Part shown: piece by piece, positions 36,263 through 56,371 of the stretch
How the letters are laid out: each line of letters begins with the position of its first letter
Position numbering within the stretch: position 1 is the first letter of the stretch
Translations under genes and position numbers: made by a program
Source of the DNA: Muribaculum sp.
Lineage (GTDB): Bacteria > Bacteroidota > Bacteroidia > Bacteroidales > Muribaculaceae
Assembly (NCBI RefSeq): GCF_029051885.1
Contig: NZ_JAIDKI010000037.1
Location: 2,456-66,455, forward strand
DNA length: 64,000 nucleotides
Direction of reading: 5' to 3'
Notes under the pieces: generated by a model
Database searches by the model: none
The model's input: the letters and a program-made list of their open reading frames with translations, nothing else
What the model was told of the DNA's origin: nothing

Positions 36263-36294
36263 AAAAAAAAATTACTCGTCGTCACGACGAATAA
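36263..36294 (-). terminator. Minus-strand terminator-like hairpin plus U9 tract inside the AT-rich gap
   Basis: The plus strand reads A9 (36263-36271) then TTACTCGTCG-TCA-CGACGAATAA. On the minus strand this is a hairpin followed by nine U. Confidence 0.65.
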
Positions 36295-36334
36295 TCTTCT
36301 TAACCTTAAATCTAATACCATGAAAAACACGTTG

Positions 36335-36342
36335 CAAAGGTA
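36335..36342 (-). promoter_or_regulatory. Candidate minus-strand -7 box (TACCTTTG) about 40 nt upstream of the minus-strand terminator hairpin
   Basis: Plus-strand CAAAGGTA is the reverse complement of TACCTTTG and matches TAnnTTTG. It would give a transcript of about 65 nt ending at 36263. Confidence 0.3.
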
Positions 36343-36504
36343 ATGGATTTTATGTTATACAACATAGTTTTTGGTCATAAAAATGCATTCTATTAACCTA
36401 ATTTAACAATTTACACCCTATTTTAAGCCATATTAGACCAAAATATAGCCTTACAGCCCGATTCAACATACCGATGGCAGTATGATAATATGCGATAAAA
36501 TTCG

Positions 36505-36512
36505 TATTTTTG
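36505..36512 (+). promoter_or_regulatory. Candidate -7 box TATTTTTG for the GH2/GH28 genes
   Basis: Exact TAnnTTTG match 65 nt upstream of ATG 36577. Confidence 0.5.
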
Positions 36513-36558
36513 TAATTAATTCTATATACCGTGTGCCAATCATACGTATTTACCATAA

Positions 36559-39681
<3,123 letters not shown>

Positions 39682-39719
39682 TAAAGTGTATCCCCGGACA
39701 TACACAGCCGATAACAACC

Positions 39720-39755
39720 GCAAGGGCGCCGATACTCAATGGTCGGCGCCCTTGC
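39720..39755 (+). terminator. Strong GC hairpin after lacZ without a U-tract (possible terminator or RNA-processing/stability element)
   Basis: GCAAGGGCGCCGA (39720-39732) pairs perfectly with TCGGCGCCCTTGC (39743-39755). The downstream sequence TGCATCATGC is not U-rich. Confidence 0.4.
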
Positions 39756-39917
39756 TGCATCATGCATGCAATGTCACAAGAGGGCATGACGGTCTACATT
39801 CTGTCGGAAAGGGGGTAAGATTCCGGCACTAATACACAGCAGGATTGCGTATTAACAAGCTATGACGTATATTCGCATCGAAAGTAAAAGTACACAATAC
39901 ATCATTATATCCACGCA

Positions 39918-41399
39918 ATGAAATTTGTATCAACGACCCTATGTCGAATCTTAGCAGTCGTAGCCGCCGTGTGTGCCACCGCCCCGGTCCACGGGTCAGA
40001 CTATGGTCAACTACCGTTTGAGATGCAGGAGGTAGCAACCCCGTCGATACCTGCATATACCGTGTCGCTCACCGACTTCGGCGCCACCGGCGACGGACAC
40101 CACGACAATACCGAGGCATTCCGCAAGGCTTTCGACCATCTGAAGGAGAATGGTGGCGGACATCTGAACGTGCCCGCCGGCATATGGCTCACCGGCCCGA
40201 TTGCGCTGGAAAGCAACACCGACCTCCATCTCGAACATGGCTCCATACTGCTGTTTTCCGACAACCGCGCCGATTATCCTCTGTTTCGCTGGGATGTGAT
40301 TGACAATCCGGCGAGGGAATGCGTGTCGCCAATCAGCGCTTTCGACAAGCACGACATATCGATTACCGGCCACGGCACCATCAACGGGCGCGGAGAGATA
40401 TGGCGTCCGGTAAAGAAAATGAAACTCACCGATAACCAGTGGAAAAAACTGTGCCGCGAGGGCTCCCTGTCGGACGACGGCCGCATATGGTATCCGTCGG
40501 AGAGCATAAAGGAGTGCAGCCACGAAAAAATCGGAGCTGCCGCCCCCGACGACGATACGGCATGGGAGAGCGTCAGGGAATTTCTACGTCCGGTAATGGT
40601 GCTCCCGGTGAGATGCGAGCGTGTACTGTTTGAGGGTGTGACATTCGAGAACTCTCCGCGCTGGAATGTGCGTCCGCTGCTCTGCCGCGACGTGACGCTG
40701 CGCAACGTAAGCATCCGCAATCCGGCATACGCCCAGAACGGCGACGGCCTTGATATAGAATCGTGCAGCAACGTGCATGTCACCGGATGTACTTTCGACG
40801 TCGGCGACGATGCCATATGCCTCAAGTCGGGCAAGGATGAGGCCGGACGCAGGAGAGGTGTGCCGACATCAAATGTACTGATAGAAGACTGTAAGGTATA
40901 CAGCGGCCATGGCGGATTTGTCGTCGGGTCGGAGATGTCGGGAGGCGTATATGACGTGGCCGTGCGCAACTGTCTGTTTATCGGCACCGACACGGGTATA
41001 AAATTCAAGTCGACACGCGGTCGCGGAGGCGCCGTAAGGGATATCCATATCTCGGGAATAAAAATGGTCGACATAGCAGGCGACGCTATCACAGCCGACA
41101 TGTACTACGCCCAGAAGTCGCCGGGGAAGCATGCCGAGCCCGTCGGCGAGTCGACTCCGGTAATCGACGGTATATCAATATCCGGAATATCGTGTACAGG
41201 CGCTGCAAGAGCCTTATGGCTCAACGGGCTGCCGGAGATGCCGATACGCAATGTCGTACTGTCCAACTCGATAATATCGTCAGAATCAGGCGCTATAATC
41301 AACAATGCCGACTCTGTCACGCTCAACAACGTGACCATAAACCACTCTACCGGCTCGCGCGTGACCGCTACCAACACCGTCAACCTTACGGAGCTCTGA
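39918..41399 (+). CDS. Glycoside hydrolase family 28 (polygalacturonase / rhamnogalacturonase-type)
   Basis: 493 aa with signal peptide. GH28 motifs NSPRWNV, NGDGLDIE, DVGDDAICLKSG, GHGGFVVGSE, IKFKSTRGRGG. N-terminal DFGATGDGHHDNTEAF. Confidence 0.95.
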   Translation: MKFVSTTLCRILAVVAAVCATAPVHGSDYGQLPFEMQEVATPSIPAYTVSLTDFGATGDGHHDNTEAFRKAFDHLKENGGGHLNVPAGIWLTGPIALESNTDLHLEHGSILLFSDNRADYPLFRWDVIDNPARECVSPISAFDKHDISITGHGTINGRGEIWRPVKKMKLTDNQWKKLCREGSLSDDGRIWYPSESIKECSHEKIGAAAPDDDTAWESVREFLRPVMVLPVRCERVLFEGVTFENSPRWNVRPLLCRDVTLRNVSIRNPAYAQNGDGLDIESCSNVHVTGCTFDVGDDAICLKSGKDEAGRRRGVPTSNVLIEDCKVYSGHGGFVVGSEMSGGVYDVAVRNCLFIGTDTGIKFKSTRGRGGAVRDIHISGIKMVDIAGDAITADMYYAQKSPGKHAEPVGESTPVIDGISISGISCTGAARALWLNGLPEMPIRNVVLSNSIISSESGAIINNADSVTLNNVTINHSTGSRVTATNTVNLTEL

Positions 41400-41444
41400 C
41401 CGGCTCCGTAGCCAACCGGCATTGTCAAGAACAAAGACAACAAC

Positions 41445-41483
41445 AAAAACCACCATTCCGTTAACTCCGGAATGGTGGTTTTT
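41445..41483. terminator. Bidirectional rho-independent terminator between the convergent GH28 and MFS genes
   Basis: A5-CCACCATTCCG (41450-41460) / CGGAATGGTGG (41468-41478)-T5. Perfect 11-bp stem flanked by an A-run and a T-run. Confidence 0.9.
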
Positions 41484-41533
41484 GCAAACCTGACAATCTG
41501 AAATTGCAGAATGTGGGGTATGTGGGTGTGGCA

Positions 41534-42925
41534 TCAGGCGTCGTCGTCGCGACGGGCGTTCCACACGAGGAGGGTGAGGAGAACCGATATTGCTGCGGCT
41601 CCAATCCAGAACCAGTTGACGTAGGTGAAGTCGTAGATGTCGGCGCCAGTAGCGGCATCGACGGTCTTGTGTCCTTCAATCAGTATGCCATTCATCACAT
41701 CCTGGAGTCCGGCACCTATGTAGCTGGCGATACCTACCACACCCAGGGCCGCGCCGGCAGCTGCCCGTGGGGCGATATCAACGGCCATAAGGCCTCCGAG
41801 AAAGCAGATGAGCACACCGATACCGAGGCCGAAGAGCACCATCGCTGTCGCATCAAGCCAGAAATGTTCGCCAGGCACAAGAAGGAAGAGACAAAGGGCC
41901 GTAACGTTCATAAGTCCGAACACAAGCGCGGGCACATTGCGGGAACCGTTGAAGAGGCGGTCGGAGATAAGGCCCGAGGCTACGGTTCCGACAATGCCGC
42001 ATACGGAGCTTATCGAGATAATCAGCGATGCGTCAAGAGTGCTGTAACCCTTCTGTGCCTCAAGATAGAACACTCCCCAGGAGTTGACAGCATAGCGCGA
42101 GATGTACATGAACGCCGAGGCAAGAGCAAGACACCATATGGCAGGATTGCGCAGAACGGCCTTTTGGGCGCGGTTGAAGTCGGGATTGGCTTCATCTCCT
42201 TTATCTTTTGCCGATGCTTTCACGGGTTCAGGGCTCGGGAATCCAAGGCTCTGAGGAGTGTCGCGCATGAAGATGAGCACGACTGCAAGGCCGCACAGAC
42301 CGATTACACCCGCGCCAAGCATTCCATAGCGCCAGCCGGCCCAGCTGACGAGCATGGCTATGGTGATAAAGGTGATGGCCTCGCCAAGGTTGTGCGATGC
42401 CGACCAGAAGCCGTAGTAGGTGCCTCGGTCCTTTGATGTGTACCATCGGTTGAGCGACACCACACATGCCGGGGCCCCCATCGACTGGAACCATCCGTTC
42501 ATGCCCCAGAGCAGGGCGAACACCCAGAACATCTCGGTCATGCCGAGAACGAGGTTGACGATGGCAGTGAGCAGCAGGCCTGTGGCAAGAAACCGTCTGG
42601 CATTGCATCGGTCGGCAAGGAATCCGTTGGCCATCTTGCCTACGGCGTAGACAAAGAAGAGGCATGAGCCGATGATGCCGAGCTGAGTCTCGGAAAACAC
42701 GCCATCGTCGACAATCGGCTTGCGCACGATATTCATAGACAACCGGCACACATAGTAAATCGCGTAGCCAAGCGTCGCAGAGATAAACGTGGCCATGCGC
42801 ACGCGACGGAATCTCTCGCGGTCATTATCGACCTCACCGGCCGGAGCCGATATACGGTAGAAACCGGCCAAACGGCTCCACAGCGAACGACCGGCAAACG
42901 AAGTCATTGAATCTGTAACTTCCAT
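41534..42925 (-). CDS. MFS transporter, organophosphate:phosphate antiporter family (UhpC/GlpT-like; candidate glycerol-3-phosphate importer)
   Basis: 463 aa with about 12 TM helices. OPA-family-like N-terminal region CRLSMNIVRKPIVDDGVFSETQLGIIGSCLFFVYAVGKMANGFLADRCNARRF. Starts 9 nt downstream of the GDPD gene on the same strand. Confidence 0.8.
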   Translation of the reverse strand: MEVTDSMTSFAGRSLWSRLAGFYRISAPAGEVDNDRERFRRVRMATFISATLGYAIYYVCRLSMNIVRKPIVDDGVFSETQLGIIGSCLFFVYAVGKMANGFLADRCNARRFLATGLLLTAIVNLVLGMTEMFWVFALLWGMNGWFQSMGAPACVVSLNRWYTSKDRGTYYGFWSASHNLGEAITFITIAMLVSWAGWRYGMLGAGVIGLCGLAVVLIFMRDTPQSLGFPSPEPVKASAKDKGDEANPDFNRAQKAVLRNPAIWCLALASAFMYISRYAVNSWGVFYLEAQKGYSTLDASLIISISSVCGIVGTVASGLISDRLFNGSRNVPALVFGLMNVTALCLFLLVPGEHFWLDATAMVLFGLGIGVLICFLGGLMAVDIAPRAAAGAALGVVGIASYIGAGLQDVMNGILIEGHKTVDAATGADIYDFTYVNWFWIGAAAISVLLTLLVWNARRDDDA

Positions 42926-42934
42926 ATTCTTATA

Positions 42935-43882
42935 TTAATCGTGGCGGCCGATTGACTTGAGGTAACTGATAAGCAAATCAGGACGGTCAGTCTGTATAAT
43001 GGATGCTCCGAGGTCAAGTACCTTTTTATAGCATTCGGCGCCGTTGTCATATGCGTAGTCGTCGTACATTCCTTCTTCGACGCCGCCACAGAGCGAAGGC
43101 CAGAGAGTATTAACCCAAATTTTTGAATTTTGTTTTTTGATATCAGCAAGACACGAGTCGAGTTCAGCTCCGGGTTTCTGCCAGCATACCTCATAGGCAA
43201 GAGGCACAGTGCCGCTCTCTATGTATTCGGCAAACAAAGCCTGCCCTTTGGGTTTATTGATATCGATTATAGGCATGTACATCATCTTTTCAGGATATGC
43301 ACCCATTATGCTGTCGACATACGCCATAGGTTTCTTACCCTTTATAAGCATCTGATCTGTCACACCAAGCGAATCGGTAATTTTCATCACGAGATCATAA
43401 TACTGGAATCCCTGGTCGATATTGACCACGATACGATCCTTGCATACCTCGAGAGCTTCGCGAAGAGTCGGCATACGATGGGTAGATGTGGCTACATTAT
43501 GGGCAGTTTTCAGAAAACATGACGCAATGGAATCACCGGTGATTTCCGACACACGGCCCTTGCCGGTTGTGGTACGGTCAATCGTATGGTCGTGGCAAAG
43601 CACAAGCACGCTGTCGGAAGTGAGCTTGAGGTCGAGTTCCATCACATCCACACCCATGCGTATCACCGACTCTATGGCAGCAATTGAATTCTCGGGATAA
43701 TTGCGCCAGTCACCACGATGTGACACTACGACAACATAATCTGTCGATGGATCATTGAGAGCCGCAATCACACGTTCTGCCCGGTTGGCATATTCCTTAA
43801 CCGGGTCATTGGATTTGCCGGCCGAACATGAGGCCATCAAGAAGGCCATAAGTCCGGCGAAAATAAAATTATAAAGTTTCAT
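42935..43882 (-). CDS. Glycerophosphodiester phosphodiesterase (GDPD family) lipoprotein
   Basis: Track start 43888 is TTG, so the start was moved to ATG 43882 (MKLYNFIFAGLMAFLMASCSAG, a lipoprotein box). GDPD motifs VVVSHRGDWRNYPENSIAAIES and MELDLKLTSDSVLVLCHDHTIDRTTTGKG. Confidence 0.9.
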   Translation of the reverse strand: MKLYNFIFAGLMAFLMASCSAGKSNDPVKEYANRAERVIAALNDPSTDYVVVVSHRGDWRNYPENSIAAIESVIRMGVDVMELDLKLTSDSVLVLCHDHTIDRTTTGKGRVSEITGDSIASCFLKTAHNVATSTHRMPTLREALEVCKDRIVVNIDQGFQYYDLVMKITDSLGVTDQMLIKGKKPMAYVDSIMGAYPEKMMYMPIIDINKPKGQALFAEYIESGTVPLAYEVCWQKPGAELDSCLADIKKQNSKIWVNTLWPSLCGGVEEGMYDDYAYDNGAECYKKVLDLGASIIQTDRPDLLISYLKSIGRHD

Positions 43883-43910
43883 AATCAAGTAGTTGAAGCT
43901 ATTTGTTTTA

Positions 43911-44013
43911 AGTAACTATTCTAAATTATTTTACATCAACCGGTCTTATTATTTAGATGTTTCTTCTAAAAATTTCACTCGAATAAACATTAAAATAATT
44001 TCGACCAGTTACT
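43911..44013 (-). repeat. MITE-like palindromic element, short copy (103 bp), inverted relative to the copy at 17415-17595, flanked by TA/TA
   Basis: The reverse complement aligns to 17414-17596. 53/53 nt are identical in one arm and 46/52 in the other. The central 78 nt of the long copy are missing, with the deletion bounded by GAAGA direct repeats. TA flanks at 43909-43910 and 44014-44015. The stop codon of the upstream GDPD gene (44013-44015, minus strand TAA) is formed by the last element base plus the TA flank. Confidence 0.85.
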
Positions 44014-44900
44014 TATTGTAAATTACTTTTCAGATAATTTATAAGCAGAGACGGATGATCAGTAAAAATCATATCTGCACCCATATCTATCAGCCATCCG
44101 TAGGCCTCCGAAGGATTTTCATATGCACGCTCGTCATCATGACCGCCATTAAACGTATCCCACAATGAGTTGAGCCATACATGGTATCCCTTATCGCGAG
44201 TCTCCTTAATACGTCGTAACACAGGATAATCGGTGTGACGGAACGAAAAACTGATGACCGGAGTATCAAAATTTTCAAGGAAATCATCAAGGCGCTCATC
44301 ATCGCCATCTCCTTTGCATACCAATACCGGTATATAAATCACATCCTCAGGCAATGCTCCGATGTCTCTATTAATTTTACTGCTGCTCCATGAGCTGCGC
44401 AATATAATATGGTCGAGACATCCGGCCTCAGAAGCCTCCTTAAGCAGAATATCCTTAAGCGACGGCCATTTGTCGACCTGAACGAGCAAACGCCCTCTAC
44501 AAAGAGCCAAAGCCTCCTTAAAAGTAGGGATCTTCTGGCGCGTAACCACGCCAATGGGAGAAAGAAGGTTAAACTCTTTCAACTGTGCAAGCGTATAGTC
44601 CGACACGCGGCCGCTACCGGTTGTAGTGCGGTCGATTGTATCATCGTGCATGAGCACAAGGACACTGTCGCGAGTCATGGCGATGTCCAGCTCGACAATA
44701 TCCACACCCATGTCGATACAGCTCCTTATAGCACGCAGGGAATTCTCGGTACCACTACGCCAGTCTCCCCTGTGGGCTATTACAACAGGCCTGTTAAACG
44801 GCGACTGCGAATAAATAGCCTCCCGCAGAGAATCGACACGTGTAGCAGCACAAACAGAGACCGCCACAAGCAGCATACCAATTACAGAAAGTAATCTCAT
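44013..44900 (-). CDS. Glycerophosphodiester phosphodiesterase (GDPD family), secreted/periplasmic paralogue
   Basis: 295 aa with signal peptide MRLLSVIGMLLVAVSVCAA. Motifs VVIAHRGDWRSGTENSLRAIRS and VELDIAMTRDSVLVLMHDDTIDRTTTGSG. Its start overlaps the stop of the EEP gene (ATGA at 44897-44900). Confidence 0.9.
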   Translation of the reverse strand: MRLLSVIGMLLVAVSVCAATRVDSLREAIYSQSPFNRPVVIAHRGDWRSGTENSLRAIRSCIDMGVDIVELDIAMTRDSVLVLMHDDTIDRTTTGSGRVSDYTLAQLKEFNLLSPIGVVTRQKIPTFKEALALCRGRLLVQVDKWPSLKDILLKEASEAGCLDHIILRSSWSSSKINRDIGALPEDVIYIPVLVCKGDGDDERLDDFLENFDTPVISFSFRHTDYPVLRRIKETRDKGYHVWLNSLWDTFNGGHDDERAYENPSEAYGWLIDMGADMIFTDHPSLLINYLKSNLQ

Positions 44901-45904
44901 TTTTGCTGAATATTAAAGTCAATAAGTATGGGGTAATGGTCGGAGGGATGGAAAAAACGAGATACTGCCGCATCACGCACAGGTGTCGTATAACTATCAC
45001 GTATCACTTTTACGTCAGAAATACAGTTGTACATCGCAGGCGTACAATAAACGTAGTCGATGCGTGCATCACGCCATATAGTGGGCACGAGTTCCATCGG
45101 ATATTTCTTGGATACGACGTCGATATACGGAGTATACTCCAGCACATAATCATGGCATAAAAATGCAGAAGTATCAGCCGGCATGCCATAAAAGCGATTG
45201 TCAAGACGCGACAGGGAATTGAAATCACCCATCATCATCCATAACTGACGATCAGCACCAGCAACACTCTCTATAGTATTGCGACAGATATACTCTATCT
45301 CCTTACGTCGATACCTGTCGCCACCATTAGCAACGGCATCATCTTTCTGTTGAGACTTATCGACGCCAAATCCATACTTCTGAGGCCAAGTATGCACCGT
45401 TACAATATTTATTGTATCGTCTCCAACAACTATCCTTGCCCAACCGGCACCATGGCTCACAATGCTGTCAGGCTCCGTTCCGACAATCCTCTTTACATTT
45501 TCAATAGGATAGCGCGAAGTCACCACCTGTGGAAAACGGTCATGATGTCCTCCTTTATACCAATAAGTGTGTCCATATTTCCGTGCAAAATCCGCCCATG
45601 CGTCAGGGAAATAACGCTCAGCATCATCGGCATATTTCTCAGAAGAAGCGGTAAGATAGTTGGACTGCGCCTCAGCCCATACACATACATCGGGATGCTG
45701 CCCGGCAACAAATTCAACGAACTCCCTGTAATCGTTCTCCTGTCCCGACCACATACCATTTTGAATATTCCAGTAAAGCAAGCGCAAATTGTTGTCAGAT
45801 GCGCCGTTACTATCGACATCACCACCTTCCGCAGAAGAGGCTATGCATACCGCCGGGACAAGGTATATCCCGGCGGCAAGCAGAACACAATTTAGTTTGT
45901 CCAT
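44897..45904 (-). CDS. Endonuclease/exonuclease/phosphatase (EEP) family hydrolase, secreted
   Basis: Track start 45916 is TTG, so the start was moved to ATG 45904 (MDKLNCVLLAAGIYLVPAVCIASS). EEP motifs LLYWNIQNG, MMGDFNS, RIDYVY, HPSDHYPILIDF. Confidence 0.85.
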   Translation of the reverse strand: MDKLNCVLLAAGIYLVPAVCIASSAEGGDVDSNGASDNNLRLLYWNIQNGMWSGQENDYREFVEFVAGQHPDVCVWAEAQSNYLTASSEKYADDAERYFPDAWADFARKYGHTYWYKGGHHDRFPQVVTSRYPIENVKRIVGTEPDSIVSHGAGWARIVVGDDTINIVTVHTWPQKYGFGVDKSQQKDDAVANGGDRYRRKEIEYICRNTIESVAGADRQLWMMMGDFNSLSRLDNRFYGMPADTSAFLCHDYVLEYTPYIDVVSKKYPMELVPTIWRDARIDYVYCTPAMYNCISDVKVIRDSYTTPVRDAAVSRFFHPSDHYPILIDFNIQQK

Positions 45905-45912
45905 AACCGAAA

Positions 45913-47637
45913 TCAATCAAAATTGGTAGTGTCGGTCCAACCCGGATTTTGGGAAAGGGCACCTCCGGAGAGCACACGCTCGCTGGCCGGAATCGGCCAC
46001 AGATAGTCGCGCTCCTCATTCCATTCAATGGTAAGATTGGGTAAAGCATGAATCATGCCTACAGAACCGTCCGTAAGAGTTATATCTTTGCCAATCTGCT
46101 TGTAATTGCCTTTCCATGAGGTCGGTTTAGCTGACGATGATACAAGAAGGTCTGCATTACCGTCACCATCCATGTCGTACTCTCCTTCACCCGGGAAATA
46201 TACCCCATAGAACGGACGTGTAAGCTGGGCACCTTCCTTCCAGCGAAGGATATCCCAAATACGGAATCCTTCAAGACAGAGCTCAATCGTTCGCTCCCTA
46301 CGGATTTCGAGAATCACGCCCGTATTGGCGCTTTGGGTCACATTGGGATAATAGTCAACCATCAGAGGATCAATATTGGAATTGGCATCTGCCATTGACA
46401 GATGTGGCATACCTACGCGGTCGCGCAGTTTATTGACAGAACGGTCGAGGTCGGCTTGTGTAAGTGAGCCAAGCTCAGCTTTTGCTTCCGCGAAATTAAG
46501 ATAAACCTCAGCCGCACGGAAAAGAGGCAAATCAGAGAACGCTTTCTTCGATCCATCATAATTTGCATTACCGACATACTTAATAGGCTGATAACCGGTA
46601 AGAGATGTCAAGTCGTTGGCTGTAACCTTGGATGCACCGACCTGAATATATCCGGGACAAAGTACAGTCTGCGAAAGACGCGGGTCACGTCCGGCAACCT
46701 CATCAGCAAACAACTTGCGGTCATAATCAGCGACAGATGAATAGAATGAGCCATCGGCCATAAGATAATGGTTCATGAAGCGACGTGTGAATCCCTGTCT
46801 GTCATTCTTTATATTAAAAGGTATGGAATGCATCACATTGGCTTTATTGCCATATTTTCTGGCAAGCACTACCTCGGTAGTCGTAGCGTCGATTGCATTG
46901 AAAAGATTACGATATGGTTCCGAACCGGTGTTCTGGATAGTGTAGCCACTCTTTGATATAAATTCATCGGCGGCATCAACGGCAGCCTTAAGATACTTCT
47001 CTGCCTCGGGTAGCCCGCGATACTTGCGCCAAGTACCTTCAAACAGCGCTACACGGCTTTTAAATGCCAGAGCCGTCCACTTGGTCACTTTAACGAGGTC
47101 ACGGTTTTTGCTACCGAGACGATATGCCTCATCAAGGTCCTCAAGCACACGGTCGATGACATAGCCGCGGTCGTCGCGCTTCTTGCGAAGCAACTCAGTA
47201 TCATTATCATTAAGAACCTTGTCATAATACGGCACATCACCAAATCGGCGTACTTTCGCAAAATAGAAGTAAGCTCTGAAGAAATAGCTTTCGGCATCGT
47301 AAGGCGCGCTGACACTTTCATCACATGCTTTGTGCTCAAAATAGTAGTTGATTCTACGCAGATCGCCCCAGCTCCATCCTGATGAAGAGGCGGCTGTACG
47401 CTGGCCCATCATAAGCTCACCCAATGCGTTGTCAACATTGTCATCGGCATTAGTGGCAACAATACCGTCGCCGTCAAGCATATCATAGTAGCCCTGCGTC
47501 CATAGTCCGAGCTGTGTGGCAGTCTTAAAGTATGTATCCGGACTCATGGTATCCTCCGGCTCCTGAGTGAGATCGCATGACACAAACATCAACGCCGCGG
47601 CACATACCGACATAATATTATATCTGGAAAATTTCAT
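45913..47637 (-). CDS. SusD/RagB-family outer-membrane lipoprotein
   Basis: 574 aa with lipoprotein box LMFVSCDL. Starts 23 nt downstream of SusC. SusD-like segments FFRAYFYFAKVRRFGDVPY and RRERTIELCLEGFRIWDILRW. Confidence 0.9.
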   Translation of the reverse strand: MKFSRYNIMSVCAAALMFVSCDLTQEPEDTMSPDTYFKTATQLGLWTQGYYDMLDGDGIVATNADDNVDNALGELMMGQRTAASSSGWSWGDLRRINYYFEHKACDESVSAPYDAESYFFRAYFYFAKVRRFGDVPYYDKVLNDNDTELLRKKRDDRGYVIDRVLEDLDEAYRLGSKNRDLVKVTKWTALAFKSRVALFEGTWRKYRGLPEAEKYLKAAVDAADEFISKSGYTIQNTGSEPYRNLFNAIDATTTEVVLARKYGNKANVMHSIPFNIKNDRQGFTRRFMNHYLMADGSFYSSVADYDRKLFADEVAGRDPRLSQTVLCPGYIQVGASKVTANDLTSLTGYQPIKYVGNANYDGSKKAFSDLPLFRAAEVYLNFAEAKAELGSLTQADLDRSVNKLRDRVGMPHLSMADANSNIDPLMVDYYPNVTQSANTGVILEIRRERTIELCLEGFRIWDILRWKEGAQLTRPFYGVYFPGEGEYDMDGDGNADLLVSSSAKPTSWKGNYKQIGKDITLTDGSVGMIHALPNLTIEWNEERDYLWPIPASERVLSGGALSQNPGWTDTTNFD

Positions 47638-47660
47638 TGCTCTATAATGTGTGATAATGA

Positions 47661-50600
47661 TTAAAATTTAACATCGACTCCAAATGAGAACGATTTTGAG
47701 AAACCATAACCGGTGCCTGAGTTTGACTTATAAGTCCCGGTAGATGTCGCCATTTCAGGATCAACAGTCTTTGTATGTTTCTTAAGGGGAGACCAGTAGG
47801 CCAGATTCTCACCGGTAAAGTATACCCTCACGGAATTAATCCAGCTATTCTTCTTTATCGGCAATGTATATCCTACGGTAAGATTTTTAAGACGCAGATA
47901 AGCTGCATTCTGGAGATAACGGTCAGTCGCTACAGAAAGCGAGCCTCCATCATAGGTCTGGTATCCGCGCTGGCGAGGGAAGTAACCGTCGGGATTGTCC
48001 TCACTCCAGCACATTGACAGAAAGTCTTTATGTATAAATGACAACGACGGAAAGTCATACGGTCCCCAGAAATCATACGAATTCTGCACCGGCATCCAGT
48101 CGCATTTTCCTACTCCCTGGAAGAAAGCCGACACATCAAATCCGACATAATTCACGTCAAGGCGGAAAGAATAATTGTATCGCGGAATGCTATTGCCTAT
48201 TATACGTTTATCGCCCGAGTTTCCGACAACGCCTGAACCTTCATCGATTTTACCGTTACCATCCAAATCAATGAATTTTACATCACCGGCACGAAGTTTA
48301 TTGTCGCCCGCAGTCTTGGCATTGTATACTCGCTGATTCACAGCCTTGTCATTGATTCTCGCCTGATATTCAGCAGCTTCTTCATCGGAAGCAAACAGAC
48401 CATCTACTTTGTATCCCCATATCTCGCCGAGAGTCATCCCTTCATAGTAATCGGATATGAGCTTGTCAGGATTGTTGAATTTTGTAATCTTCGACTTATA
48501 ATCGCCGAACGTAGCAGATATACTGTAATTGAGTCTATGTCCAAAAAGGCGTAAATTGTCATTCCACCTCAGATATAATTCCCATCCGCGTGTGCGTAAA
48601 TCAGCACAGTTCTGTTTTGGTGTGGTAGCGCCGAATACCGACGGCAGAGTCACCGAGTGGGTAAGCATATCCTTGGTGTCACGTACAAAGATGTCGGCAG
48701 TTGCAGTAAGTCGATTGTTCAGAAATCCGAAATCAAGACCAAGATTGTAGGTGATAACCTTTTCCCAAGTCAGATTTGATGACAACGGAGATGAAACTGT
48801 AGCGTATGTGGCACGTTGTTCGCCGTCGAAAGTATAGTCTGTAAGAATCTTGTCGGTATAGATTTTATCAAAATAAGCATAGTTGCTTACCTGCTGGTTT
48901 CCGAGAGAACCATATGACACGCGGAGCTTGGAGTTGTTCCACCATCCTTGCATACCGTCCCAGAATTTCTCCTGACTCATACGCCAGCCTGCTGAGGCAG
49001 ACGGGAAAAATCCCCATCGGCTGCCGGGAGCAAAGCGAGAAGAACCGTCATAACGGCCGCTGACTTCCAGCAGATACTTTCCATCGTAGTCATAATTAAG
49101 GCGTGCAAAATAACCCAAAGTCTTGTAAGCAGAGATTTCCTCGGTAACGGTAGCCACGCCGTTGGCCACACTCATTGAACTGAGATCATCGGATAGAAGG
49201 TCAGTCTTTTTAACGCTAAGCTCTGTGTTGCGCTGGTGTTCATACTGCATACCGGCCACGGCCTTGAAGTTGTGCATGCGCTCCCATGTATGGGAATATG
49301 TACCGAACAGATTGAAAGAGTGGCGGTTGATGTCTGACTTTATTTCCTGATAGAAATCTTCCACTGTTCCGGATGTGAATTTTTTCACACTGCCGCTCTT
49401 GTCAAGATAATTAAAAGGTACGCCCCTGCGCTCGATACCGCGGTTGCGATAGCGGTAGGCATATGATGCCGTGATGACAAGATCCTTATATATGTCGATA
49501 TCAAACTGATTGGTAAGTACAAAATCCTTGTTTCCACGAGAATTGCGCGACCGATTATCCGTAAGATAACCTGCATGACCGGCTCCAAGTGGAGAGTTGG
49601 CGCCTGTCATTGTATTTACATACTGTATTGTCTGTCCGTCGGGAGACAGAGGCATTACCGCAGAGTTTATATTGCTCTGGAGAGCATGTATGGTCTGCTG
49701 TTCGTTCCAGTAGCCGGCATATTTGTAGTTGGTATAATTGAAGTTGGCACCACCAGAATAGCGAAGGAAGGGGAAAATCTCGGCATTCAGCTTCATTCGG
49801 AAGGAGTAGTTGGTATACTTGTCGTTGTATATCTTGAATATACCGTCCTGCTGAAGAAAGCGGCCCGATACGTAATAGTTGGTCTTGGCATTACCTCCGG
49901 TAATTGACACGTTGTGCTCCTGTTCAGGACGTGTATCACGATAGAAATAGTCGTACCAATCGTGGTTGGCATAGAAATAGAGTTTGCCATCACGCTCTAC
50001 AGTCCAGGGACGATCGGGATTCTCGGTCTTGTCGTAGCGACGTGCCTCGAGCATCTCAAGATCTTCACCTGTATAACCCCACATATCCTTGCCCTGAGCT
50101 ATGCGATAGAACTTATTGACGATAGTCACATGGTCGTAGCCGGTGGTAATGAAGTCAGTGGATGTAGTATTCTTGCGCCATCCAAATCGGCCATTATAAC
50201 TGACATTTACCCTTCCGTCGGAATCCCTGCCAGACTTTGTAGTTATAAGAATCACGCCGGAAGATGCTTTTGCACCGTAGATCGCAGCGGCTGAGGCGTC
50301 CTTAAGCACTGAAATCGATTCTATATCGTTTGGGTTGATTTGGCCGAGACTTACCTCCATACCATCGCAAAGCACAAGAGGAGAGCCACCGTTGATAGAT
50401 GCGGCACCACGTATATCAATAGAATATCCGGCATCCATCGACCCGGAGTTAAATGTCAGATTGACCGATGGATCAGCACCCTGAAGGGCATTGGCAGCAC
50501 TTGCAACAGGGCGGTTGTTTATGTCATCCGCACTGATTGTAGCGACAGCACCCGTAAGATTGGCACGCTTCTGAGTGCCGTAACCCACGACAACCACCTC

Positions 50601-51200
50601 ATCAAGCACCTCGGCATTTTCTTTCATCTCGACCGATGCAAGAGCATCGACGTCGGATGCTGCAATCTCACGTGGCACACAGCCAATCATTGAGAAAACA
50701 ATTGTAGCATCAGCCGGTACATTGCCAAGGGTGTATCTACCGTCAATATCGGTAGAACATCCGTTATTTGTGCCCTTTACCATAACAGTAGCACCGATAG
50801 CAGGGTCACCTAAATTATCAAGCACCAATCCGGAGATGGTTTTTCTGCCTTCTTGTGCGGACGAGGGAGATGTCGAGCCACTTTTCTTAGTAATTACAAT
50901 CGAATTGGGCGATACAATCTCATAAGAGAGGTCTCTTCCACGAAACGCCGCATCAAGCACTTTGCTGACAGGCGTATCTTTCATTTTTACCGTGACCCCC
51001 TTCTGCCCATCAATAATAGCCATCCGATAAGAGAAGCGGTAGGTTGTCTGCGACTCAATAGCCTTAAACAGGCTCTTCAGAGTAGAATTCTCGATATTGA
51101 CTGTGACATTCTGGCCGGAAGGAGCTGCGGCACATACGCCTGCGACCATGAAGCACATCAACAAGAGCGAGAATAATCTCGTACGAATAAATTTGTACAT
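47661..51200 (-). CDS. SusC/RagA-family TonB-dependent transporter with N-terminal STN signalling domain
   Basis: 1179 aa. STN-like segment (TLKSLFKAIESQTTYRFSYRMAII...VSKVLDAAFRGRDLSYEI). CarboxypepD_reg-like segment (ISGLVLDNLGDPAIGATVMVKGTNNGCSTDIDGRY). TonB box DEVVVVGYGTQKRANLTG. C-terminal FGVDVKF. Confidence 0.95.
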   Translation of the reverse strand: MYKFIRTRLFSLLLMCFMVAGVCAAAPSGQNVTVNIENSTLKSLFKAIESQTTYRFSYRMAIIDGQKGVTVKMKDTPVSKVLDAAFRGRDLSYEIVSPNSIVITKKSGSTSPSSAQEGRKTISGLVLDNLGDPAIGATVMVKGTNNGCSTDIDGRYTLGNVPADATIVFSMIGCVPREIAASDVDALASVEMKENAEVLDEVVVVGYGTQKRANLTGAVATISADDINNRPVASAANALQGADPSVNLTFNSGSMDAGYSIDIRGAASINGGSPLVLCDGMEVSLGQINPNDIESISVLKDASAAAIYGAKASSGVILITTKSGRDSDGRVNVSYNGRFGWRKNTTSTDFITTGYDHVTIVNKFYRIAQGKDMWGYTGEDLEMLEARRYDKTENPDRPWTVERDGKLYFYANHDWYDYFYRDTRPEQEHNVSITGGNAKTNYYVSGRFLQQDGIFKIYNDKYTNYSFRMKLNAEIFPFLRYSGGANFNYTNYKYAGYWNEQQTIHALQSNINSAVMPLSPDGQTIQYVNTMTGANSPLGAGHAGYLTDNRSRNSRGNKDFVLTNQFDIDIYKDLVITASYAYRYRNRGIERRGVPFNYLDKSGSVKKFTSGTVEDFYQEIKSDINRHSFNLFGTYSHTWERMHNFKAVAGMQYEHQRNTELSVKKTDLLSDDLSSMSVANGVATVTEEISAYKTLGYFARLNYDYDGKYLLEVSGRYDGSSRFAPGSRWGFFPSASAGWRMSQEKFWDGMQGWWNNSKLRVSYGSLGNQQVSNYAYFDKIYTDKILTDYTFDGEQRATYATVSSPLSSNLTWEKVITYNLGLDFGFLNNRLTATADIFVRDTKDMLTHSVTLPSVFGATTPKQNCADLRTRGWELYLRWNDNLRLFGHRLNYSISATFGDYKSKITKFNNPDKLISDYYEGMTLGEIWGYKVDGLFASDEEAAEYQARINDKAVNQRVYNAKTAGDNKLRAGDVKFIDLDGNGKIDEGSGVVGNSGDKRIIGNSIPRYNYSFRLDVNYVGFDVSAFFQGVGKCDWMPVQNSYDFWGPYDFPSLSFIHKDFLSMCWSEDNPDGYFPRQRGYQTYDGGSLSVATDRYLQNAAYLRLKNLTVGYTLPIKKNSWINSVRVYFTGENLAYWSPLKKHTKTVDPEMATSTGTYKSNSGTGYGFSKSFSFGVDVKF

Positions 51201-51376
51201 GTTGTGGTATTAAAGGTTATATAATCAGTTGGATTTCTAATGTCTGTCGACTCCGGAACATATCCGCGCCATTAGATATTTCGTATCAATTTTATGATTG
51301 TCCCTCCGAATTTTTATGTTTAAAAACATATTGCAACTTTTATTAAAAAGCGCTTTGAACCCCACATGCAAACGCT

Positions 51377-51384
51377 TACCTTTG
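51377..51384 (+). promoter_or_regulatory. Candidate -7 box TACCTTTG for the second ECF sigma gene
   Basis: Exact TAnnTTTG match 61 nt upstream of ATG 51445, in the 244-bp divergent intergenic region. Confidence 0.5.
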
Positions 51385-51444
51385 CCAAAAATTATAATGT
51401 AGAAAACAAGCAATATCACACCTATTTCCATAACCATCAACCTC

Positions 51445-52020
51445 ATGCATCATTCTAAAGATGAACAATCACTGGCAGCCGCACTAAGGACAGGGTCGGT
51501 AAAGGCATTCGAGGCCATATATAGGCTCTATGTCGATCGACTGTATGCCTACTGCTTTGATGCAATAAGAATGAAGCAAGAGACCGAAGAGGTTGTACAC
51601 GATGTATTCCTGTCACTATGGAACAATCGCGACAGGATAGATCCGGAAAAAGGCATTGGACCACTAATGTTTTCAATTGCCCGCAAACGTCGTATCGACG
51701 CTTTCCGCAAACTTGTCAACAGTCCCATATACGAAGATTACATCGAACATCAGAATTCTCTCCCGTCATTGGAGCATTCGCCGATGGAGTATGAAGAGTT
51801 TGCCCGAATATTCCGCAAAACACTAAGCAAGATGCCGACAAGAATGCGCTCTATGATAATATGGTCGAAACTCGAAGGAATCAACAATGATGAAATCGCC
51901 TCACGACTCGGAATCTCTGAAAAGACAGTACGCAACCAGCTGTCACTCGCACTCAAAGAACTACACAATCGTTTAAGCCCATATATCGACAACAGCCGAC
52001 GCATTCCGCCCGATATATAG
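51445..52020 (+). CDS. ECF-type RNA polymerase sigma-70 factor
   Basis: 191 aa. Region 2 (LYAYCFDAIRMKQETEEVVHDVFLSLW) and region 4 HTH (NNDEIASRLGISEKTVRNQLSLALKELHNRL). Divergent from SusC at 51200. Confidence 0.9.
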   Translation: MHHSKDEQSLAAALRTGSVKAFEAIYRLYVDRLYAYCFDAIRMKQETEEVVHDVFLSLWNNRDRIDPEKGIGPLMFSIARKRRIDAFRKLVNSPIYEDYIEHQNSLPSLEHSPMEYEEFARIFRKTLSKMPTRMRSMIIWSKLEGINNDEIASRLGISEKTVRNQLSLALKELHNRLSPYIDNSRRIPPDI

Positions 52021-52088
52021 GACCCAAGAAGCACATCCCATAACCATTCAATACATCCCCTCTAATCCCCACCGAACAATATAAATAT

Positions 52089-53081
52089 ATGAAGCAGGCC
52101 AACGATCTCTTCAATAAATTCTACTCAGGCAGAATGTCGCCAAATGAGTTGCAGCGTCTGCGCGAAGAGGTAAATCAAATGAGCGATGACGAAATTGACG
52201 GATATCTCTCTGACTCCATGCCTGACAATATGGAATCAGATTACAGGATAACGTCAGAAAATTCAGAGACACTACTTCGACGACTTACTGCTGAAATAAA
52301 TTTCAAAAACCGCCGCCACCGTATATACATGTGTATTGCTGCCGTTGCCGCAGTAATGCTGCCAATCTTCATCACACTCACAATCGTGCTCGGAATACGG
52401 GTGGCCCAGCTTGACGGCTATCAAAAAGTAATCGCCGATGAACATATCATACGTAGTGGCAACGGTGAAGAATTACTTACCGTATTGCCCGACGGCTCAA
52501 GGGTAAGGATGGCTCCGGAATCGGAAATATGCTATTCATTATCATCGTTCAACGACAAAATTCGAAATGTCGACTGGAAAGGCGAAGGTGAGTTTGAGGT
52601 TGTGCACAATCGACAAAGTCCGTTCGTGGTACATACGGGATACTTCGACATAAAGGTACTTGGCACAATATTCTCGGTAGATGTCCGTCGTGACAACGGC
52701 GATGCAACCGTGTATCTAAAAGAAGGTTCGGTAGAACTGTCAACATCCCAATCCGACTATAGTTGTCGTCTTTCCCCCGGATATCTTGCTACAATCAGCA
52801 GGGTTACAGGTGAAATATCGGTAAAGCGCATCGACGATTTCAACAGCGACATTGGAAGCAGCACACTGACATTTTATGATATTGAGCTGGCCGGGGTGCT
52901 TTCGCGGCTTGAACTGTATTATCCCGAACATTTCGATGCTCCGACCGAAATGGCCTCCCAAAGATTTACCGGCGCTCTTCCAAAAAATAATCTAAACGAA
53001 GCTCTGACTATACTTGCCAAGGCGTATGGTCTGGAGGTGGAGGAGAGCGCGGAGAGGGTGAAACTCGTCAGGAGTGAGTGA
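52089..53081 (+). CDS. FecR-family anti-sigma factor
   Basis: 330 aa with TM helix IYMCIAAVAAVMLPIFITLTIVLGI. FecR domain (LPDGSRVRMAPESEICY...GEGEFEVVHNRQSPFVVHTGYFDIKVLGTIFSV). Confidence 0.9.
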   Translation: MKQANDLFNKFYSGRMSPNELQRLREEVNQMSDDEIDGYLSDSMPDNMESDYRITSENSETLLRRLTAEINFKNRRHRIYMCIAAVAAVMLPIFITLTIVLGIRVAQLDGYQKVIADEHIIRSGNGEELLTVLPDGSRVRMAPESEICYSLSSFNDKIRNVDWKGEGEFEVVHNRQSPFVVHTGYFDIKVLGTIFSVDVRRDNGDATVYLKEGSVELSTSQSDYSCRLSPGYLATISRVTGEISVKRIDDFNSDIGSSTLTFYDIELAGVLSRLELYYPEHFDAPTEMASQRFTGALPKNNLNEALTILAKAYGLEVEESAERVKLVRSE

Positions 53082-56171: not shown

Positions 56172-56371
56172 TAAGTCCAATCAGCAAAATACAATCTTTC
56201 TGATTGCCTTAGACCATGATTCAGCGCATGTCGTTTTGCTATGTCGGCGGCGCATGAGAAAGTCTATCAACGCACATCGCCGGGTTATTATTTAGTGCGA
56301 CCGCCCGGAGAATCGTGCTATATGTTAATTGTGAGTCGCGCCTAAAGATTATTATTATTACATTCAATTCT

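Follow-up and report, generated by a model that had tools for sequence, protein, structure and literature searches.

A compact operon in the window (the 64,000-nt stretch of DNA analyzed here, from a Muribaculum that is closely related to M. intestinale) probably encodes a substrate-sensing, SusCD-based system for organophosphate utilization, a counterpart of the Pus systems of Flavobacterium. We infer its transport, signaling, and catalysis steps, as well as its substrate, from protein families, conserved residues, operon structure, conservation, and co-inheritance.

Organization of the operon

The order and strands of the eight genes and the recomputed spacers confirmed what a sequence-only reading of this DNA had described. 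The minus strand carries, head to tail, genes for an STN-SusC of the SusC/RagA TonB-dependent transporter family (47661–51200, 1179 aa), a SusD-family surface lipoprotein (45913–47637, 574 aa), a secreted EEP-superfamily phosphodiesterase (44897–45904, 335 aa counted from the ATG), the predicted periplasmic GDPD + DUF4996 phosphodiesterase GDPD_a (44013–44900, 295 aa, SPI signal), the GDPD + DUF4996 lipoprotein GDPD_b (42935–43882, 315 aa, ATG start), and MFS, which resembles organophosphate:phosphate antiporters and is a relative of GlpT, UhpC, and PgtP (41534–42925, 463 aa). The spacers of 23 nt, 8 nt, a 4-nt ATGA overlap, 130 nt, and 9 nt were reproduced exactly. For the EEP gene, a TTG at 45916 would give a longer open reading frame; the ATG was taken as the start because a 335-aa database twin (P0001) agrees. 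Genes for an ECF-type sigma factor (51445–52020, 191 aa) and a FecR-type anti-sigma factor (52089–53081, 330 aa) are transcribed divergently on the plus strand, and the region between susC and the sigma factor gene (51201–51444) is read as a putative divergent control region.

The operon is closed after its last gene, MFS, by a terminator-like hairpin with an 18-bp stem and a T-rich tail (41443–41485, minus strand), which separates it from a convergent GH28 gene (39918–41399, plus strand) of a neighboring PUL. This gene ends 134 nt past the MFS stop, and the earlier statement that the locus lacks glycoside hydrolases is true for the transcription unit. A phosphomonoesterase gene is also absent from the locus.

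The element previously read as a MITE between GDPD_a and GDPD_b is real: it is 107 nt long (43909–44015), has 25-nt terminal inverted repeats, folds as a hairpin (z = -2.8), and shares its ends with a longer relative at 17413–17597 in the window. The outer end of the element shares bases with the GDPD_a stop codon, and the element could be polar on GDPD_b and MFS in this strain. It is missing from the orthologous M. intestinale locus, in which the gap is 16 nt, and every M. intestinale contig has GDPD_a intact.

Family assignments and conserved residues

Pfam matches were judged against curated cut-offs, and NCBIfam models were used likewise. All of the family calls made earlier (GDPD, Exo_endo_phos, MFS_1, STN, and SusD) passed the Pfam cut-offs, that for EEP marginally. 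For SusC, TIGR04056 (NCBIfam) scored 839.9 bits against a cut-off of 368 and the STN domain (Pfam) 33.2 bits against 28.4, and plug, barrel, and CarboxypepD_reg domains are also present. SusD scored 142.6 bits with SusD_RagB (Pfam cut-off, 23.1) and clusters at 90% identity or more with M. intestinale RagB/SusD proteins. The anti-sigma factor matched FecR (55.5 bits; cut-off, 24) and FecR_C (25.1 bits) in Pfam. The sigma factor matched Sigma70_r2 (34.9 bits; 24) and Sigma70_r4_2 (48.5; 25.7) in Pfam as well as TIGR02937 (82.5; 42.9), and scored 125, just under the cut-off of 126.4, with the Bacteroides-type model TIGR02985.

For the two GDPDs, which share 34% identity, the Pfam GDPD model scored 94.6 bits (GDPD_a) and 85.4 bits (GDPD_b) against a cut-off of 23.6, and DUF4996 scored 92.9 and 87.6 against 33.7. 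In both proteins the GDPD match covers no more than the N-terminal ~100 of 244 positions, and the C-terminal halves match DUF4996. Both retain the catalytic/metal-binding motifs HRG...ENS...ELD...HD, with one metal-ligand Glu replaced by Asp; the motifs of GDPD_b align to PDB entries 2pz0 and 3i10, the latter being the best PDB match of GDPD_a (6e-54). More than 5600 homologues were found for GDPD_b. The signal calls hold, GDPD_b being a lipoprotein (lipobox LMASC) and GDPD_a carrying an SPI-type signal, the Cys of which is Gly in the M. intestinale orthologues. A GlpQ-type identity was not borne out: the enzymes fall far under the NCBIfam equivalog cut-offs for GlpQ and UgpQ, have DUF4996 C-termini, and are not GlpQ orthologues. 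The second-best NCBIfam match of both is the staphylococcal lysophosphatidylglycerol phospholipase D, and both have weak AvrBs2 matches.

For the EEP protein, Exo_endo_phos (PF03372) scored only 27.7 bits against a cut-off of 24.5, and a sequence search of the PDB gave no match. This weak profile call is backed by a predicted structure (AlphaFold (AF2), pLDDT 84.9) and by the catalytic residues N50, E82, D231, N233, D287, D326, and H327, which are invariant among 28 homologues. In Foldseek the model matched the AP-endonuclease (APE1), ExoIII, TDP2, and LINE-1 endonuclease folds (E ~1e-13), with TM-scores of 0.5–0.75 and sequence identities of 12–17% that are generic for the superfamily.

For MFS, MFS_1 (Pfam) scored 173.7 bits against 33.4, whereas TIGR00881 (266 bits), UhpC (252 bits), and GlpT (220 bits) each remained under the curated cut-off. 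The best PDB match is GlpT (1pw4, 1e-49), and the GlpT substrate-binding residues R45, K80, H165, and R269 are retained. Since the protein lies below every curated OPA cut-off, its substrate could be another organophosphate.

Conservation and related loci

The same arrangement is present in M. intestinale contigs from hundreds of samples, and this recurrence of an identical order indicates that it is not due to chance. The adjacency is conserved and hence not specific to one strain. SusC shares 96% identity with its M. intestinale orthologue, 74% with that of locus L087, and 51% with that of the Petrimonas locus L092, and SusD is 76% and 52% identical to those of L087 and L092, respectively; these orthologous pairs (74–76% in Muribaculaceae and 51–52% in Petrimonas) are thereby set apart from unrelated SusC proteins (25–28%). 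In other Muribaculaceae and in Petrimonas, the orthologous pairs accompany the GDPD-DUF4996 gene GDPD_b; the identity of its product is 86% for L004 and L087, 66% for Petrimonas, and 53% for the rumen loci. Judging from this co-occurrence, GDPD_b is the predicted core enzyme co-traveling with the SusCD pair.

The accessory genes vary. An NAGPA phosphodiester glycosidase joins the orthologous SusCD loci, and a CocE/NonD hydrolase joins them in Muribaculaceae only: the loci with 74–76% SusC/SusD carry a CocE/NonD-family hydrolase and NAGPA between SusD and EEP, and in Petrimonas a 1110-aa NAGPA protein accompanies GDPD_b and the orthologous SusCD. These sister loci encode accessory enzymes of glycan type as well as large surface proteins (NAGPA, DUF4988, BACON, TIG). 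In rumen Bacteroidales, EEP, GDPD-DUF4996, and OPA-MFS occur together again, but with an unrelated SusC and an EEP of a distant clade, and these loci also carry GH3 and an SGNH esterase. None of NAGPA, CocE/NonD, GH3, and SGNH esterase is present in this Muribaculum locus. Human gut contigs contain a third architecture, STN-SusC / SusD / GDPD / GDPD / NAD-dependent glycerol-3-phosphate dehydrogenase / EEP, and an Alistipes GDPD-DUF4996 gene adjoins one for a protein with paired DAO and DAO_C FAD-oxidoreductase domains, read as a putative GlpD-like enzyme.

The possibility that the EEP family is dedicated to such loci was rejected, as its Alistipes member lies within a purE-purK-purL-EEP-purC-purF-purM-purN-purH operon. 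A purine-biosynthesis operon hosts EEP in ~20 of 80 species-level relatives, and a GDPD-DUF4996 gene lies within 10 kb of EEP in only 3 of the 80. The EEP family is promiscuous in genomic context.

Proposed function and candidate substrates

The sequence of import, cleavage, and uptake proposed earlier is well supported by homology and context, namely the GlpT residues of MFS, the GDPD motifs, and the glycerol-3-phosphate dehydrogenase neighbors. SusD would bind a phosphodiester-containing nutrient on the cell surface, and STN-SusC would bring it across. Through its STN domain, SusC would report its occupancy to the FecR anti-sigma factor, freeing the ECF sigma factor and raising operon transcription. 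EEP and the two GDPD-DUF4996 enzymes would split the phosphodiester bonds in the periplasm, perhaps partly at the surface, to yield glycerol-3-phosphate, or an alcohol phosphate closely related to it, along with a free alcohol. The GlpT-like antiporter would then bring the organophosphate into the cytoplasm by exchanging it for phosphate, and the cell would obtain carbon and phosphorus. Glycerol-phosphate diesters are the most likely substrate class, with oligomeric or polymeric glycerol-phosphate of Gram-positive origin (teichoic/lipoteichoic fragments) very slightly favored over deacylated phospholipid head groups.

A strict teichoic-acid utilization system, in which wall or lipoteichoic acid shed by Gram-positive neighbors would be cut to glycerol-phosphate either outside the cell, on its surface, or in the periplasm, is a tentative possibility. 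Teichoic acids are decorated with D-alanyl esters and glycosyl substituents and linked to peptidoglycan via a GlcNAc-1-phosphate diester, and the CocE/NonD hydrolases include alpha-amino-acid ester hydrolases; the accessory set of the sister loci therefore fits teichoic debranching. The teichoic-acid substrate put forward in the sequence-only reading thus gains circumstantial support from the NAGPA and CocE/NonD of the sister loci and the GH3 and SGNH esterase of the rumen loci, but all of these enzymes are missing here and would equally suit other phosphodiester-linked glycoconjugates. As a speculation, the two GDPD paralogues could serve the two glycerol-phosphate enantiomers. Poly-GroP wall teichoic acid is broken down by GlpQ-type GDPDs when it is unsubstituted (PMC7086022), but the present enzymes are not orthologous to GlpQ, and a literature search gave no paper on teichoic-acid use by Bacteroidales.

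A similarly tentative possibility is the scavenging of small glycerophosphodiesters (GPC, GPE, GPG, GPI) or lyso-/sphingophospholipids from bile, diet, shed epithelium, or dead bacteria, as by Flavobacterium Pus1; phospholipid head-group diesters are about as likely as teichoic-type substrates because PusCD1 imports glycerophosphoinositol. PusCD1, which binds inositol-1-phosphate and acts with periplasmic phosphodiesterases under ECF control, is the only experimentally proven precedent. The minimal enzyme set, devoid of esterase and glycosidase, the phospholipase D match of both GDPDs, and the membership of sphingomyelinases in the EEP superfamily (PMC10704324) are consistent with such cargo, whereas the NAGPA, DUF4988, BACON, and TIG proteins of the sister loci suggest a bigger, decorated substrate, and three phosphodiesterases seem too many for a single small diester.

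Another phosphodiester-linked glycoconjugate (glycerol-phosphate-decorated capsules or exopolysaccharides, fungal phosphomannan, plant GIPC, GPI-anchor glycans, or sugar phosphodiesters) is improbable. The NAGPA association hints at sugar-1-phosphate diesters, some EEP enzymes are specific for sugar phosphodiesters such as GlcNAc-6-phosphocholine, the GDPDs have their weak AvrBs2 matches, and a galactose phosphodiester is reported as the target of a GDPD-derived enzyme (PMC12807533). However, the glycerol-3-phosphate dehydrogenase genes that adjoin GDPD genes at related loci and the GlpT-like binding residues favor glycerol-phosphate, and the operon has no glycoside hydrolase.

Extracellular nucleic-acid scavenging, with EEP as a nuclease and DNA or RNA fragments taken in, is very improbable: the nuclease folds closest to the EEP model, the Alistipes pur operon, which hints at nucleotide supply, and the occurrence of GDPD and EEP genes in variants of Bacteroidetes ribose-utilization loci point that way, but the fold matches are generic, the locus encodes no nucleotidase, nucleoside hydrolase, ribokinase, or nucleoside transporter, and nucleotide handling is not known for GDPD enzymes or OPA antiporters.

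The favored reading, an organophosphate operon acting on glycerol-phosphate diesters, is testable in the related M. intestinale, a cultured species. In F. johnsoniae, glycerophosphoinositol is taken up by PusCD1 and PusCD2, which also support growth with phosphatidylinositol (2026 preprint; Lidbury 2020), and pus1 and pus2 each include an ECF sigma/anti-sigma pair and periplasmic phosphodiesterases. Control by such a pair, earlier said to look unusual, is therefore not unusual for this class. In addition, pusCD-like pairs beside glpQ-like genes were already noted in gut Bacteroidota in the same preprint. The Muribaculum operon would be a gut-anaerobe counterpart of the Flavobacterium Pus systems, sharing the SusCD-type transporter, the ECF/anti-sigma pair, and the phosphodiesterases; PusCD1, the sole experimental precedent, takes up a small head-group diester.

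Gene content of the phosphodiesterase operon

A recheck of the genes, coordinates and strands at 41534-53081 indicated that the finding of the sequence-only reading, a SusCD pair associated with phosphodiesterases, is real and was correctly described. Six genes are packed on the minus strand at 41534-51200, and a seventh and an eighth are transcribed divergently. The STN-SusC gene (47661-51200, minus strand) scored 839.9 bits against TIGR04056 (cut-off 368), 60.2 bits against the SusC signature TIGR04057 (cut-off 46.2) and 33.2 bits against STN (cut-off 28.4), and the SusD gene (45913-47637, minus strand) scored 142.6 bits against SusD_RagB (cut-off 23.1). These scores, all above cut-off, identify the pair as a Sus-like TonB-dependent import locus. 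The remaining minus-strand genes are the hydrolase gene EEP (44897-45904), the two phosphodiesterase genes GDPD_a (44013-44900) and GDPD_b (42935-43882), and the GlpT-like transporter gene MFS (41534-42925; MFS_1, 173.7 bits). With ATG starts, SusC and SusD are separated by 23 nt, and the following junctions are a spacer of 8 nt, a 4-nt overlap, and spacers of 130 and 9 nt, in agreement with the spacing read from the sequence at first. On the plus strand lie an ECF sigma gene (51445-52020; TIGR02937, 82.5 bits, cut-off 42.9) and a FecR anti-sigma gene (52089-53081), which matched both FecR and FecR_C. The FecIRA-type trans-envelope signalling set is thus complete, with STN on the transporter, the FecR anti-sigma and the ECF sigma.

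Pfam searches of the operon found no glycoside hydrolase or lyase, as had been claimed, and no esterase; the enzymes are an EEP and two GDPD proteins. Under the strict definition of a PUL, which asks for CAZymes co-transcribed with SusCD, the window operon does not qualify. An 18-bp terminator-like hairpin (41443-41485) lies 3' of the last gene, MFS. The GH28 gene near this end was rejected as part of the locus, since it is convergent, lies past the hairpin and belongs to the neighbouring PUL; it is also missing at that position in some contigs of Muribaculum intestinale (L095-L097). This neighbouring PUL (26657-41399, plus strand), which converges on the phosphodiesterase operon, is of ordinary ECF type and comprises FecR, SusC, SusD, a SusE-like protein, an unknown 527-aa protein, a GH2 beta-galactosidase and GH28. 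Elsewhere on the plus strand, at 56315-62824, another SusC/SusD pair (the third) precedes a putative zinc metallopeptidase (Peptidase_Mx1), and this locus may be directed at peptides or glycoproteins.

For the two GDPD proteins, the scores against the GDPD superfamily model PF03009 (cut-off 23.6) were 94.6 bits for GDPD_a and 85.4 bits for GDPD_b, with matches confined to the N-terminal part of the 244-position profile (positions 1 to about 100-115), and the C-terminal halves of both matched DUF4996 (92.9 and 87.6 bits, respectively). Alignment to 2pz0 showed the HRG, ENS, ELD and HD motifs in both proteins, and the NIE motif reads NID, with Asp in the place of one metal-ligand Glu. Both proteins have a full-length homologue in 3i10 (E 6e-54 and 1e-55), a structural-genomics "putative glycerophosphoryl diester phosphodiesterase" from which no more than the fold, a complete GDPD-type barrel, can be read. 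The scores against the UgpQ model PRK09454 (74 and 70 bits) and the GlpQ model PRK11143 (31 and 38 bits) were far below the equivalog cut-offs of 264 and 254, respectively. By these profile and motif matches, GDPD_a and GDPD_b are assigned as GDPD-superfamily phosphodiesterases and not as GlpQ orthologues. GDPD_b carries a lipoprotein signal and GDPD_a an SPI signal.

For EEP, the Pfam match that places it in the EEP superfamily is marginal (PF03372, 27.7 bits, cut-off 24.5), no NCBIfam model matched, and a PDB sequence search with the protein gave no match. The assignment is nevertheless secured by three observations: all 28 homologues compared share the catalytic Asn/Glu/Asp/His residues without variation, AlphaFold gave a confident model (pLDDT 84.9), and Foldseek matched this model to AP endonucleases, ExoIII, TDP2 and the LINE-1 endonuclease with E of about 1e-13 (probability 1.0, E 2e-13), consistent with the four-layer alpha/beta sandwich of the superfamily. 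These fold matches, at 12-17% identity, are generic for the superfamily and point to no one substrate or subfamily among those weighed (nuclease, sphingomyelinase, inositol phosphatase and GlcNAc-PDase). In many EEP homologues, acidic residues come after a clear lipobox, a pattern that suggests surface exposure of these homologues; the signal peptide of the window EEP itself is ambiguous.

The MFS protein aligned to E. coli GlpT (1pw4, E 1e-49) with R45, K80, H165 and R269, the substrate-binding residues of GlpT, all conserved. Of the NCBIfam models, those for PgtP/UhpC/GlpT come closest, and the protein remained under the curated cut-off of every OPA model, with 266 bits for TIGR00881 (cut-off 407.75) and 220 bits for the GlpT model (cut-off 632.55). 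Because the residues are conserved and the scores are below the OPA cut-offs, MFS is best described as an OPA-like transporter with a GlpT-like site, and not as a proven glycerol-3-phosphate carrier.

The 130-nt gap between GDPD_a and GDPD_b contains a 107-nt MITE (43909-44015) with terminal inverted repeats of 25 nt. A longer relative of 185 nt lies at 17413-17597, the first ~55 nt of which are shared exactly with the copy in the operon, and the family ends common to both copies are TAAGTAACT... and ...AGTTACTTA. The 107-nt element and the GDPD_a stop codon overlap at the outer end of the element. The orthologous locus of M. intestinale has no counterpart of it, and the GDPD_a C-terminus reads ...LKSNLQ* in the window and ...LTNDLKQNN* in M. 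intestinale. From this comparison, the insertion appears to have reshaped the GDPD_a C-terminus and to have supplied its stop, and a polar effect on GDPD_b and MFS is possible.

Conservation of the locus and its variants

The window ArgS and SusD cluster at 90% identity or more with M. intestinale proteins, which indicates that the host is a Muribaculum close to M. intestinale. In M. intestinale-type contigs from hundreds of sample blocks, the same locus lies between argS and the neighbouring PUL, with identities to the window of 96% for SusC, 92-93% for SusD, 86% for EEP, 86-87% for GDPD_a, 94% for GDPD_b and 88-89% for MFS. Inconsistent gene calls in some of these contigs raised the possibility that GDPD_a is a pseudogene there, which was rejected because the ORF is intact in all. 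The G+C content of the phosphodiesterase operon (42000-52000) is 46-50%, compared with ~53-57% over most of the window; since M. intestinale has the same locus at the same site, any transfer was not recent. A contig from an uncultured Muribaculum shows argS, FecR and ECF sigma, then SusC, SusD and EEP up to the contig end.

More distant loci were compared by six-frame ORF clustering, family HMMs and Pfam neighbourhoods, as tblastn and single-sequence phmmer against 80 related loci were too insensitive for SusD and GDPD. For three sister loci of other Muribaculaceae (L087, L088 and L004, the last from a Bacteroidales MAG), SusC is 74%, SusD 76%, GDPD_b 86% and MFS 86-91% identical to the window proteins. 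GDPD_a is missing from all three, and a CocE/NonD-family hydrolase and NAGPA (PF09992, phosphodiester glycosidase) are present between SusD and EEP. Conservation between L004 and the window is mosaic, as GDPD_b (86%) and MFS (91%) adjoin an EEP only 64% identical to that of the window; this pattern of identities suggests module exchange between loci.

For Petrimonas mucosa, SusC, SusD and GDPD_b are 51%, 52% and 66% identical, respectively, and are accompanied by FecR, an ECF sigma, a NAGPA protein of 1110 aa and surface proteins of the DUF4988 type, with neither EEP nor MFS nearby. Unrelated SusC proteins show 25-28% identity only, so that the SusCD pair and GDPD-DUF4996 form a co-inherited core. 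NAGPA genes recur beside EEP and/or GDPD-DUF4996 in several Bacteroidales lineages (L087 6660-9847, L004 487-3782, Petrimonas L092 3322-6654 and a further related locus, L089, 10001-13662); the CocE/NonD hydrolase joins them in Muribaculaceae, and one such cluster is a stand-alone EEP-EEP-NAGPA trio.

Rumen Bacteroidales loci again combine EEP, GDPD-DUF4996 (53%) and MFS (48-58%), beside a SusC unrelated to that of the window and with an EEP from a distant clade. Also encoded there are surface proteins of the BACON, DUF5689 and TIG types, another large EEP protein, GH3 and an SGNH esterase. Rumen variant loci (L071 10924-13632 and 13794-15788) carry a protein of 902 aa with an EEP domain at its C-terminus and, between EEP and the SGNH esterase, a 664-aa protein without a Pfam or NCBIfam match. 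A common human-gut contig carries, in this order, STN-SusC, SusD, Fib_succ_major, two GDPDs, an NAD-dependent glycerol-3-phosphate dehydrogenase, EEP and transketolase. In Alistipes, a GDPD-DUF4996 gene adjoins a gene with the FAD-oxidoreductase domain pair DAO/DAO_C, which is read from its domains as a putative GlpD-like glycerol-3-phosphate dehydrogenase.

The adjacency is therefore not unique to one strain, whereas uniqueness to the strain had been named as a result that would refute the proposal, and a strain-specific accident is rejected by its conservation in M. intestinale, sister Muribaculaceae and Petrimonas.

The EEP family itself is large (>1000 database relatives and >520 genome hits) and is not tied to SusCD-phosphodiesterase loci: among the 80 best species-level relatives, SusC lies within 10 kb of EEP in 23 and GDPD-DUF4996 in only 3. 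In the Muribaculaceae clade that includes the window EEP, all members with enough flanking sequence sit in a SusCD locus. About 20 of the same 80 form an Alistipes/Rikenellaceae clade, in which a secreted EEP orthologue (53-60% identical) lies inside a purine-biosynthesis operon of the order purE-purK-purL-EEP-purC-purF-purM-purN-purH-purD-folD (L090, L005, L007-L010, L013-L015, L022, L026, L027, L031, L036, L046, L049 and L070). An exported phosphodiesterase is oddly placed in a pur operon, which may hint at nucleotide scavenging.

Proposed mechanism and candidate substrates

On the basis of homology and context at every step, the operon probably encodes a system of import, cleavage and uptake. 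A phosphodiester-containing nutrient would be captured by SusD and imported by STN-SusC, and signalling from STN through FecR to the ECF sigma would raise operon transcription in a ligand-dependent manner. EEP and the two GDPDs would cut the diester bonds. The organophosphate so released, which is most likely glycerol-3-phosphate, would then enter through the GlpT-like antiporter in exchange for phosphate. Glycerol-phosphate is suggested as the product by the glycerol-3-phosphate dehydrogenase neighbours in related loci together with the GlpT-like site.

Teichoic acid, the substrate favoured at first sight of the sequence, is put forward here as a hypothesis. Teichoic acids carry D-alanyl esters and sugar substituents and are attached by a GlcNAc-1-phosphate linkage unit, and the accessory NAGPA, CocE/NonD, GH3 and SGNH proteins of loci with orthologous SusCD fit such decorations. 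Fragments of teichoic or lipoteichoic acid, or other polymers of glycerol-phosphate, are accordingly a tentative candidate for the imported material. Phospholipid head-group diesters are nearly as likely and equally tentative. The minimal enzyme set of the window locus favours them, as does the only experimental precedent, that of Flavobacterium johnsoniae, in which PusCD1, the SusCD-like pair of the organophosphate system Pus1, imports glycerophosphoinositol. Other phosphodiester glycoconjugates are improbable, and nucleic acids, an alternative first raised on account of EEP, are very improbable.

If the polymer assignment is extended to the related loci, gut and rumen Bacteroidales might hold dedicated teichoic-acid utilisation loci directed against Gram-positive wall glycopolymers, a generalisation that we regard as speculative. 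Its core could conceivably be the orthologous SusC/SusD pair and GDPD-DUF4996 under ECF control, and NAGPA, CocE/NonD or SGNH esterases, GH3, EEP and the GlpT-like antiporter are equally tentative as variable additions. Under the same extension, the Muribaculum locus might be a stripped-down form for unsubstituted poly(glycerol-phosphate), a suggestion made with similar reserve.

The gut is rich in lipid head groups and in polymers linked by phosphodiester bonds, and teichoic acids can be a large share of Gram-positive walls; to our knowledge, almost nothing is known of the gut organisms that recycle such compounds. Teichoic-acid loci, if they exist, would connect gut Firmicutes to Bacteroidota through cross-feeding, or feeding on necromass, in a way that had gone unrecognised, and with teichoic or lipoteichoic acid as the substrate a major immunostimulatory molecule would also be removed from the lumen. 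The proposal is directly testable, because M. intestinale is cultured; it is also used in defined mouse consortia.

Comparison with known systems

Among the papers covered by full-text searches, none dealt with PULs for teichoic acid or glycerophosphodiesters in gut Bacteroidales, with the window gene set, with DUF4996 or with Bacteroidales teichoic-acid use. Apart from the papers on Pus, the only relevant one concerned ribose PULs, for which it names GDPD and EEP genes among those of variant loci.

Classical ECF-regulated PULs of gut Bacteroides, in which the STN domain of SusC signals across the envelope, resemble the window operon in STN-SusC, SusD, the divergent ECF sigma and FecR, and the tight operon. 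They differ in that the window operon is devoid of GH, lyase and esterase genes, and all three of its enzymes are phosphodiesterases.

The GlpQ/UgpQ-GlpT pathway, the GlpQ of which has teichoicase activity in B. subtilis and S. aureus (PMC7086022), shares with the window operon the GDPD catalytic motifs, the would-be product glycerol-3-phosphate and a GlpT-like transporter with its binding residues. In contrast, the window GDPDs are far under the equivalog cut-offs, with DUF4996 C-terminal halves and the one Glu to Asp change, and SusCD import and ECF control are linked to the pathway in the window, in place of the Pho or glp regulon.

The closest likeness is to Pus1 and Pus2 of F. johnsoniae. 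SusCD-like "PusCD" pairs, induced by low phosphate and located beside phosphodiesterases or phosphatases, were described by Lidbury et al. 2020 (PMC8115612). According to a later preprint (Connolly et al. 2026, bioRxiv 10.64898/2026.09.03.749221), PusCD1 and PusCD2 are needed for growth on phosphatidylinositol and glycerophosphoinositol, Pus1 and Pus2 both carry an ECF sigma/anti-sigma pair, and pusCD-like pairs adjoin glpQ-like genes in plant- or gut-associated Bacteroidota. Such gut gene pairs had thus already been noticed by Connolly et al., though not analysed. Since both Pus systems have these regulatory pairs, the view that trans-envelope control by ECF, anti-sigma and STN is unusual is not supported.

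Pus and the window operon both combine a SusCD-like pair with periplasmic phosphodiesterases, not CAZymes, and organophosphorus compounds, the substrates of Pus, are the probable substrates here too; by gene content, two marks of Pus are present here, namely phosphodiesterases in place of CAZymes and the ECF/anti-sigma pair. PusD1 has a phosphate-binding Arg/Thr/Tyr set and a stacking Trp; no PusCD entry was among the PDB matches of the window SusC and SusD. The enzymes differ: Pus has PI-PLC, a calcineurin-like phosphatase and PhoA, with a GDPD-like domain on PhoA1 of Pus2, compared with EEP and two GDPD-DUF4996 proteins in the window. No inner-membrane transporter is reported for Pus1 or Pus2 in the accessible text, whereas the GlpT-like antiporter ends the window operon, which implies that the organophosphate enters intact and supplies carbon in addition to phosphorus. 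Moreover, the Pus host is an aerobic soil flavobacterium with Pho control, whereas the window host is a strictly anaerobic gut Muribaculum, and the window system, unlike Pus, is one of a family in which variants contain NAGPA and esterases. A SusCD pair with a GlpT-like exit would carry the Pus concept over from Flavobacterium, an aerobe of soil, to Bacteroidales that live as anaerobes in the gut, and organophosphate carbon, not phosphorus alone, would join the list of SusCD cargos. Overall, the window system is conserved and varies on a type of system that was established recently; it is not categorically new.
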